Made by a program: the position numbers and the translations under genes. Below are positions 62,669 through 63,935 of a stretch of 64,000 nucleotides of DNA, piece by piece. Positions within the stretch are counted from its first letter, which is position 1, and the number at the start of each line of letters is the position of its first letter. This DNA comes from Escherichia coli (lineage in GTDB: Bacteria > Pseudomonadota > Gammaproteobacteria > Enterobacterales > Enterobacteriaceae): NCBI RefSeq assembly GCF_003334255.1, contig NZ_QOWU01000021.1. One strand, given 5' to 3'. The notes below the pieces were generated by a model. The model had not been told where the DNA came from and searched no databases. It worked only from the letters and a program-made list of their open reading frames with translations.

Positions 62669-62742
62669 GCGGGCGTAGTTCAATGGTAGAACGAGAGCTT
62701 CCCAAGCTCTATACGAGGGTTCGATTCCCTTCGCCCGCTCCA
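62669..62742 (+). tRNA. glyU: tRNA-Gly (anticodon CCC)
   Basis: GCGGGCGUAGUUCAAUGGUAGAACGAGAGCUUCCCAAGCUCUAUACGAGGGUUCGAUUCCCUUCGCCCGCUCCA; cloverleaf with anticodon loop UUCCCAA, encoded CCA end. Confidence 0.95.
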
Positions 62743-62897
62743 ATTTATCTTCGCCGTAATACTTCCCCATTTTGTTGTAAATAAAAAGCGTTTACGCAAT
62801 GCAATCCTTTTGTAACAACCCAGGTAAAACACCTTATTTTCAAGTTGTTAAATAAGTGGTTATCTACGCTTTTAACAAACGATTGATGGAATATTTT

Positions 62898-63935
62898 ATG
62901 AAAGGGAAATCTGCATTAACTCTTCTGCTCGCTGGTATATTTTCGTGCGGCACATGCCAGGCGACAGGGGCAGAAGTGACGAGTGAATCTGTATTTAACA
63001 TTCTTAATTCCACGGGGGCAGCAACAGATAAAAGTTATTTATCGTTAAATCCAGATAAGTATCCTAATTATCGTCTTCTGATTCACTCAGCCAAATTACA
63101 AAATGAAATAAAGAGCCACTATACCAAAGACGAAATTCAAGGATTGCTAACATTAACAGAAAACACACGAAAGTTAACGTTGACGGAGAAACCCTGGGGA
63201 ACGTTTATTCTTGCTTCTACTTTCGAAGATGACAAAACAGCGGCAGAAACCCACTATGATGCTGTCTGGTTGAGGGATAGTTTATGGGGCTATATGGCAT
63301 TAGTATCAGATCAGGGAAATAGTGTAGCCGCAAAAAAGGTTCTGCTCACCCTGTGGGATTATATGTCTACGCCCGACCAGATTAAGCGGATGCAGGACGT
63401 CATTAGCAACCCAAAACGACTGGATGGAATTCCCGTGCAAATGAATGCTGTGCATATCCGATTTGACAGCAACTCCCCCGTGATGGCAGATGTGCAGGAA
63501 GAAGGCAAGCCGCAGCTGTGGAACCATAAACAAAATGATGCTTTAGGTCTTTACCTTGATCTCCTTATACAAGCAATCAACACTGGTACTATTAACGCTG
63601 AAGATTGGCAAAAAGGTGACCGATTAAAGTCGGTTGCGCTGCTGATTGCTTATCTGGATAAAGCCAATTTCTATGTTATGGAAGATTCCTGAGCATGGGA
63701 AGAAGATGCCCGATTAAACACATCTTCCGTTGCACTGGTGACCTCTGGACTGGAACGTTTGTCAAACCTACTCTCGAAGAAAGACTCTGTTTTTGTCTCT
63801 GATTTACTACGCGAAGCTAAAGTCAATGAACTGGATGAAACTCTTTCAACAACGAGGTTGAACCACCTCATAGATAAAGGTTATGAAAGAATAACGTTAC
63901 AGCTTGATTTAGGGGGAGAATCCCATAAGCGCTAA
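62898..63935 (+). pseudogene. ygeQ: ygeQ-like gene (secreted protein, possibly glycoside-hydrolase-related) interrupted by an in-frame TGA at 63690-63692
   Basis: ORF 62856..63692 with signal-peptide-like MKGKSALTLLLAGIFSCGTCQA from ATG 62898; same reading frame resumes after the TGA (..AWEEDARLNTSSVALVTSGLERLSNLL..) to 63935. Confidence 0.5.

Follow-up and report, generated by a model that had tools for sequence, protein, structure and literature searches.

The glyU locus and the left edge of the ETT2 island

The DNA analysed here, which we call the window, is a stretch of 64,000 nucleotides from Escherichia coli contig NZ_QOWU01000021.1. The features at its end are summarized in Table 1. 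ARAGORN finds one tRNA only in the last 9 kb, a tRNA-Gly(CCC) that agrees in every base with the tRNA-Gly annotated here in K-12-like genomes and in other E. coli (100% alignment). This is glyU, and it lies downstream of actS (ygeR) and xdhABC. The consensus scan gave the single promoter-like site listed in Table 1 where 0.7 would be expected by chance, and taken alone this is weak evidence. A terminator scan 3′ of glyU found none. An earlier note on this DNA had reported a tRNA-Gly (glyU) followed by a ygeQ-like gene, and both are confirmed, the former by ARAGORN and the latter by the position of ygeQ as called by the NCBI annotation pipeline PGAP. Thousands of complete genomes are annotated with this arrangement, so the tRNA and open reading frame features have not arisen by chance. 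Two rare indels lie nearby in the window, an additional C in actS (in the C run at 62045-62052) and, in ygeV (57523-57529), a 7-bp duplication that is present in no complete genome searched.

Table 1. Features at the end of the window. A dot marks features given without a strand.
Feature	Position	Strand	Basis
Promoter-like site upstream of glyU: TTGCTA, 16-nt spacer, TATAAT	62624-62651	+	Consensus scan, 10/12 matches
tRNA-Gly, anticodon CCC (glyU)	62669-62742	+	ARAGORN
Junction of 78-bp deletion just 3′ of glyU	62750/62751	.	Alignment
Junction of core chromosome and ETT2 island (left edge)	62806/62807	.	Comparison with empty site in UTI89
pkgA/ygeQ 5′ fragment, codons 1-264 plus premature TGA	62898-63692	+	Open reading frame, PGAP match
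Signal-peptide-like N-terminus, codons 1-22	62898-62963	+	Within 5′ fragment
Nonsense TGA, codon 265 (GGA/Gly265 in intact orthologues)	63690-63692	+	Codon comparison
pkgA/ygeQ middle fragment, codons 266-342, in frame	63693-63923	+	Codon comparison, alignment of 29 homologues
Left copy of 10-bp target-site duplication GGGAGAATCC, in GGGG(N6)CCCC hotspot	63914-63923	.	Seven same-junction genomes
Left end of IS186/IS421 (IS4 family), running off the window	63924-64000	+	Identical to start of the element in L004

The junction was located by comparison with genomes in which the site is empty. In the B2 strains UTI89 and ST131 strain 751, and in WW2, glyU is followed by yqeG after ~316 bp. The sequence shared with these genomes stops after ...GCAATGCAATC (62788-62806), and alignment of the empty site with island-bearing genomes places the right junction ~175 bp upstream of yqeG. 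The G+C content of the window falls from ~50-54% before 62800 to 38-48% (about 40%) beyond it. In the window the left junction is 64 bp past glyU; in genomes that do not have a 78-bp deletion just 3′ of the tRNA gene, the distance is 142 bp. These 78 bp are retained in A7 and in the island-free UTI89, ST131 and WW2, and are missing from the window and the K-12-like genome 1FA. Among the genomes compared, the deletion is found only in carriers of the TGA allele described below (1FA, 98-3133, STECUZB006 and SCU-104), and the gene spacing in relatives is consistent with this distribution.

A low-G+C island called ETT2 is known at glyU in most strains, and is widely decayed (PMC3977695, PMC11068852). 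Its published G+C content is 36.9%, compared with 50.8% for the chromosome. ETT2 adjoins glyU, with ECs3736 pkgA = b2863 ygeQ as its terminal member (Table 1 of PMC3977695), and ECs3736 and ECs3737 are homologous to K-12 b2863 and b2862 (PMC3977695). The window has in common with published ETT2 the site between glyU and yqeG, the low G+C content, the first gene pkgA/ygeQ and the same 'mutational attrition', and it shares both the TGA allele and the identical 78-bp deletion with the ETT2 of K-12. The end of the window is the left edge of the ETT2 island at glyU, and the first gene of the island, pkgA/ygeQ, is disrupted twice and would be dead. The earlier note had proposed a probable island boundary at this point, which the empty sites in UTI89, ST131 and WW2, the mapped junction and the drop in G+C now bear out. 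Its statement that ETT2 lies beyond glyU in K-12 agrees with PMC3977695, and with the degenerate type III secretion genes carried by 1FA and by the genomes that share the junction described below.

An in-frame TGA in pkgA/ygeQ

The ATG at 62898 is the start of ygeQ as called by PGAP, and from it the frame has 264 codons up to the TGA. The frame then stays open for 80 further sense codons, up to a TAA at 63933-63935. In related genomes PGAP has WP_000676919.1, 'protein YgeQ', in the equivalent position, and it calls this 264-aa fragment a protein rather than a pseudogene. In strain A7 the locus holds an uninterrupted gene of 536 aa, annotated as 'glycoside hydrolase family 15 protein', and megablast found that many of 5,426 complete genomes of E. 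coli have an uninterrupted gene at the locus that is annotated as glycoside hydrolase family 15 (GH15). WP_000676938.1 is an example of the intact allele. Over the first 342 codons the window differs from A7 by the change of GGA (Gly265) to TGA and by four other substitutions only.

Gly265 is invariant in 29 aligned homologues, and is located two residues before an invariant WEE; the pattern G-x-WEE occurs in 107 of 107 full-length homologues. The WEE motif is encoded in the middle fragment at 63696-63704, and that fragment ends in the GGES of an invariant GGESP. Since Gly265 is invariant and the orthologue is one continuous protein of 536 aa, the TGA is a nonsense mutation and not a gene boundary. 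On the comparison of orthologues the annotated 264-aa YgeQ is evidently the N-terminal remnant of the 536-aa protein. It is without both of the predicted catalytic glutamates, E268/E269 and E491, although the fragment might formally retain a residual role. A literature search found no title or abstract naming ygeQ.

The TGA allele is not confined to the window. Among 3,466 complete E. coli genomes with a match to the segment, 945 have the exact 61-mer that contains the TGA, K-12 derivatives included, and the allele is common to K-12 and many phylogroup-A-like genomes. A further 2,520 genomes differ from the 61-mer by at least one base, and all sampled rows were annotated as GH15 and not as YgeQ. 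Codon 265 is GGA in all four of the genomes without the TGA that were read. The gene has been damaged independently in other ways elsewhere; 5 bp are deleted at codons 187-188 in O157:H7 strain FRIK2533, and 1FA has a truncation associated with IS2.

The earlier note had read the gene as broken by an in-frame TGA at 63690-63692, with the frame running on to 63935, and the coordinates of the open reading frames agree. The 81 codons that it counted after the TGA are correct if the stop is included. It took the TGA for a break and not a boundary between genes, as the orthologues now indicate, but its guesses for the ancestral codon (TGG, CGA or TCA) were wrong, the orthologues having GGA. It was also mistaken in regarding the TGA as a single lesion, having missed the insertion sequence that begins at 63924.

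An IS186/IS421 element within the GGESP codons

The window has a single copy of a 23-bp terminal inverted repeat, CATAAGCGCTAACTTAAGGGTTG, at 63924-63946. The last 77 bases of the window are identical to the start of a 1,339-bp insertion sequence in L004, the other end of which has an inverted copy of the repeat. A transposase ATG lies at 63979, with seven codons inside the window, and this start matches WP_001300563.1 of L004, an 'IS4-like element IS421 family transposase'. K-12-like genomes are 100% identical to the window only up to 63924, and the final 77 bases match many IS421 places per genome.

The native gene stops after codon 342 (63923), and the TAA belongs, with the three sense codons before it, to the element. 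Because this TAA lies inside the terminal repeat, 63935 is not a natural gene end; codons 343-536 of pkgA lie beyond the element and beyond the window. The insertion separates Ser342 from Pro343 in the invariant GGESP. The uninterrupted site, GGGGGAGAATCCCC, is present in A7 and 1FA. It reads GGGG-GAGAAT-CCCC, and so fits the published target of IS186, 5′-GGGG(N6/N7)CCCC-3′ (PMC5009759).

The exact junction between gene and element occurs in 8 of the 5,426 complete E. coli genomes. Seven of these were read. Six contain the identical 1,339-bp element and G8 has a 1,337-bp copy, and in all seven the position and orientation are the same and both flanks carry the 10-bp duplication. The element accompanies the TGA in 98-3133, G8, SCU-104 and STECUZB006, and GGA in 09-00049, Ec-U5 and NCTC11023. 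The eighth genome, VL40, is 99.5% identical to the window junction and stands outside this tally. The presence of the element on both backgrounds means either that the hotspot has been hit more than once, or that the insertion has been moved by recombination. The 23-bp repeat, the length of 1,339 bp, the 10-bp duplication and the target are those of IS186/IS421 insertions at known hotspots (e.g. the lon promoter, fimA and menC). The site in pkgA/ygeQ differs from these in being rare, in being occupied on two allelic backgrounds and in having the element always in the same orientation.

The island in closely related genomes

The complete genomes closest to the window are those of 98-3133 and STECUZB006, with three SNPs and two indels over the last 12.2 kb. 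The O157:H16 strain 98-3133 is 99.9% identical to the window over these 12.2 kb, and differs by 12 SNPs and no indels over the preceding 50 kb. In 98-3133 the segment from junction to junction is 19.9 kb long, and has a G+C content of 34.7% without the insertion sequence, compared with 50% in the flank. After the 3′ remnant of pkgA there are genes for SpaN/EivJ, YscQ, EscR/S/T/U, PrgH/I/J/K-like proteins, OrgA and LuxR-type proteins, and the island continues to ygeH ... yqeH, with many genes frameshifted. Five genomes that share both the junction and the TGA allele (TGA and element were read in four) have type III secretion genes directly after pkgA, again with many frameshifts.

From these same-junction genomes we infer what lies past position 64000: the remaining 1,262 bp of the element, the second copy of the target, the 3′ part of pkgA and the type III secretion genes. 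The degenerate ETT2 type III secretion cluster, with its SPI-1-like apparatus genes (epr/epa/eiv), should thus follow the element in the source genome too. K-12-like 1FA also has degenerate type III secretion genes immediately past pkgA/ygeQ. Unlike the window it has no IS186/IS421 at codon 342; its gene is cut by IS2 at a later point, and 1FA has lost more of the type III secretion cluster than have the genomes with the window junction. The latter keep the 3′ part of pkgA and more of the type III secretion genes, including epaO-S-like and eprH-K-like genes.

The location of the island raises the question of how it arrived. The earlier note had hinted at glyU as an integration site by remarking that tRNA genes are classic ones. 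Such an entry would have needed an integrase to recombine the island with the 3′ end of the tRNA gene. The island does abut glyU, and glyU serves as an attachment site elsewhere: NCTC11023 carries a tyrosine-integrase element with ~33 nt of the 3′ end of glyU repeated at its far side, by pkgA. Yet the ETT2 junction is not in the tRNA gene, given the distance of 64 bp (142 bp without the deletion). The island of 98-3133 has no annotated integrase, and no second copy of any glyU segment above 12 nt is present in or beyond it, so that nothing above this length was found as an att-type direct repeat at the far end. Nor do the left and right junctions share a clear direct repeat. A classic tRNA-integration scar for ETT2 is not supported by these comparisons, and we regard entry by this route as unlikely.

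The intact protein and its relationship to GH15

A protein search with the intact sequence returns homologues of ~500-560 aa with 88-99% query coverage, in hosts that include E. albertii (76% identity), Yersinia enterocolitica, Commensalibacter, Bifidobacterium, Elusimicrobiota, Planctomycetota and Bdellovibrionales. Across 29 of these G265, W267, E268, E269, G339-P343 and P490-E491-S492 are invariant, and the motifs are found in 103-107 of the 107 full-length matches. The Pfam family PF00723 (Glyco_hydro_15) matches the intact orthologue weakly, over residues 94-401 with an i-E value of 2.9e-5 and 23.6 bits. In an NCBIfam scan of the intact protein nothing was above cut-off, the best match being oligosaccharide amylase with 15 bits vs a cut-off of 821, so the protein belongs to no curated family there.

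A search of the PDB with the single sequence gave marginal matches to the beta subunit of phosphorylase kinase (PhK) only. A profile of the 29 homologues compared with PDB sequences matched only the GH15-like domains of the alpha and beta subunits of PhK. An AlphaFold model calculated from the alignment of 29 homologues is largely helical, with pLDDT = 90.1 and pTM = 0.90. Foldseek comparison of this model with the PDB gave PhK alpha/beta first, then the GH15 glycosidase 5z3a/7c24, and then the glucoamylases 1ayx, 2vn4 and 6fhv, dextran dextrinase and glucodextranase; E = 1e-8 to 1e-10 for PhK alpha/beta, 5z3a and the glucoamylases. The intact protein is therefore predicted by the model to be a GH15-like (alpha/alpha)6-barrel. 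PF00723 and the predicted barrel relate PkgA to the GH15 enzymes (glucoamylase, glucodextranase and isomaltose glucohydrolase) and the PhK alpha/beta domains. PkgA has 12-18% identity with solved structures, and differs from GH15 in having no N-terminal beta-sandwich and no starch-binding domain, and in possessing a predicted signal peptide.

GH15 enzymes hydrolyse alpha-glucosidic bonds with inversion and use two catalytic glutamates, a general acid, which sits in a Trp-Glu-Glu motif in the fungal enzymes, and a general base near the C-terminus. In sequence alignments WEE aligns with GxWE of PhK. With this knowledge of GH15, the alignments suggest that W267-E268-E269 occupies the position of the general acid, and Pro-Glu-Ser 490-492 is a candidate for the general base. 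In the window the TGA falls before the WEE motif and the element before the PES motif.

The N-terminus, MKGKSALTLLLAGIFSCGTCQA, resembles a signal peptide, and an N-terminal stretch free of charged residues is found in 75 of the 107 homologues, so the intact protein is probably exported. The E. coli N-terminus fits a loose PROSITE-type lipobox but not the strict form, and a lipobox is present in a minority of the homologues (10-19 of 107); the protein may be a lipoprotein (Cys17) or a periplasmic protein cleaved after Ala22.

To our knowledge no enzyme of the PkgA/YgeQ subfamily has been characterised, and we know of no member with a known substrate. A tentative suggestion from the motifs and the predicted fold is that intact PkgA/YgeQ might act as a glycosidase on a substrate yet to be described, and be by sequence and fold the closest bacterial relative of the regulatory alpha/beta subunits of animal PhK; its repeated, independent knock-outs might then have been selected and not reflect neutral decay. 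The knock-outs in this reading are TGA265, the 5-bp deletion in O157:H7, IS186 on two backgrounds and, in K-12, truncation by IS2.

Alternative readings of the TGA and the junction

The annotation invites the view that the TGA is the natural boundary of two separately conserved genes. PGAP ends ygeQ at the TGA, 1FA has a separate 'hypothetical protein' downstream, and the older literature listed b2863 and b2862 as two genes. Against this A7 and, apparently, thousands of other genomes have one open reading frame of 536 aa with GGA at codon 265, and homologues from several phyla are single chains spanning 88-99% of the protein. Moreover codon 265 lies inside the invariant G-x-W-E-E, and the predicted single barrel crosses the site. 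We consider two genes at this position to be extremely improbable. Just as improbable is that the TGA is decoded, as selenocysteine or by read-through, with the gene still making one protein. The frame is indeed open past the TGA, and the neighbouring ygeY, yqeB, yqeC and xdh are annotated as selenium-related. But the residue is Gly in every homologue aligned and never Cys or Sec, only some E. coli carry the TGA allele, and a read-through product would still be cut by the element at codon 342 and be without the invariant PES. The idea of a SECIS element was rejected, as the RNA 3′ of the TGA folds like shuffled sequence, with no unusual structure (z = −0.08).

Errors of sequencing or assembly could in principle have created the TGA or the junction with the element, and the rare indels in actS and ygeV might be such errors. 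However, the exact TGA 61-mer recurs in 945 independent complete genomes. The exact junction is found in eight, with the complete element and its 10-bp duplication in the seven that were read, and an artefact has next to no probability as an explanation of either lesion.

Inactivation of pkgA/ygeQ

We are highly confident in the account as a whole, which none of the data contradict, that the window ends at the edge of ETT2, where the first gene pkgA/ygeQ has been inactivated by the TGA and then by IS186/IS421. The tRNA, the junction, the difference between GGA and TGA, and the identity and position of the element are observed directly, and loss of function of pkgA/ygeQ would be the expected outcome. 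In the first step GGA, the codon of the invariant Gly265, would have become TGA by a G-to-T change, ahead of the WEE that carries the putative GH15 general acid. In the second, IS186/IS421 would have entered the GGGG(N6)CCCC hotspot formed by the codons of GGESP, between codons 342 and 343. The 10-bp duplication would be a product of this insertion, and with the element came the TAA that closes the apparent frame. Because the TGA allele is common without the element, the TGA most likely came before the element in the lineage of the window.

The essentials of this locus have been described already, namely the position of ETT2 beside glyU, the target preference of IS186, and the fact that ygeQ is what remains of pkgA. 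The finding thus corresponds to the published boundary between glyU and ETT2 and to the known ygeQ pseudogene of K-12, and its value lies mainly in correct annotation. The apparent end of the open reading frame is made by the inverted repeat of the element, so readers relying on open reading frames misplace the end of the gene. An insertion at this site in ygeQ is rare but mechanistically ordinary; the GGGG(N6)CCCC hotspot coincides with an invariant motif of the protein, and is occupied by the element on both the TGA and the GGA background. The interest of the PkgA family lies in its evolutionary link to the regulatory subunits of phosphorylase kinase, a link noted before in the name pkgA itself, which stands for 'phosphorylase kinase and glucoamylase' (PMC3977695).

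Deletion and gene-disrupting lesions near glyU

Directly past glyU the window lacks 78 bp, and among the compared genomes this deletion is confined to carriers of the TGA allele, i.e. those with the nonsense codon 265 in ygeQ/pkgA. The 78 bp are retained both in strains with the GGA allele, where the codon is intact, and in B2 strains free of the island. The deletion is therefore derived and lies within core sequence. The positions of the features are collected in the table.

Features of the window and the comparison loci
Feature	Locus	Position	Remarks
IS186 target motif	window	3059-3073	two overlapping registers
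K-12-like ygf/yge/xdh region	window	about 2049-57000	serA ... ygeY
CAGAGGT duplication	window	57523-57529	tandem, 7 bp, in ygeV
actS (ygeR)	window	about 61835-62590	amidase activator gene
C run in actS	window	62045-62052	8 C
78-bp deletion	window	62750/62751	directly 3' of glyU; TC microhomology at its flanks
Loci in strain G8	L003	6231-6928 and 8101-9437
ygeQ/pkgA of O157:H7 FRIK2533	L013	1743-3348	5-bp deletion, codons 187-188
Mobile element in glyU, NCTC11023	L012	558-2119	tyrosine recombinase

Two other strains carry lesions of ygeQ/pkgA or its neighborhood. Strain G8 has both the TGA and the IS186/IS421 insertion as in the window, its IS186 copy being 1,337 bp in length and annotated as frameshifted. 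Two IS1A copies are present as well: one lies between glyU and ygeQ, and the other deletes the greater part of ETT2. In O157:H7 FRIK2533 the GH15-like gene has an independent lesion, a 5-bp deletion, and it is because of this that the O157:H7 gene appears in the literature as the split annotation ECs3736/ECs3737.

Changes in the rest of the window

The rest of the window is the K-12-like region of purine and selenium-linked catabolism, which is collinear with that of O157:H16 98-3133, one of the closest complete genomes, with 99.98% identity. The window contains one remaining GGGG(N6)CCCC motif, which is unoccupied here and from its sequence would be a potential target for IS186.

The duplication in ygeV, a sigma-54 regulator gene of 592 codons, lies near codon 531. 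It shifts the frame of the C-terminus. It was found in no complete E. coli genome of the collection, and the window's other 50 kb are entirely free of indels relative to the nearest genome. The C run of actS has seven C in K-12-like 1FA and in 98-3133. The extra C shifts the frame so that the ORF ends at 62064, giving 84 aa in place of 251. Among 5,406 complete E. coli genomes, only that of strain E29 contains an exact match to the 66-mer of this region. The eight-C run reflects either a frameshift that is genuine but rare or an error in sequencing the homopolymer.

glyU as a site of integration

In NCTC11023 a different mobile element is integrated in glyU, and about 33 nt of the 3' end of the tRNA gene are duplicated beside pkgA as an attR-like site. 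The element and its repeat show that glyU is a live integration site, although ETT2 itself has no such scar.
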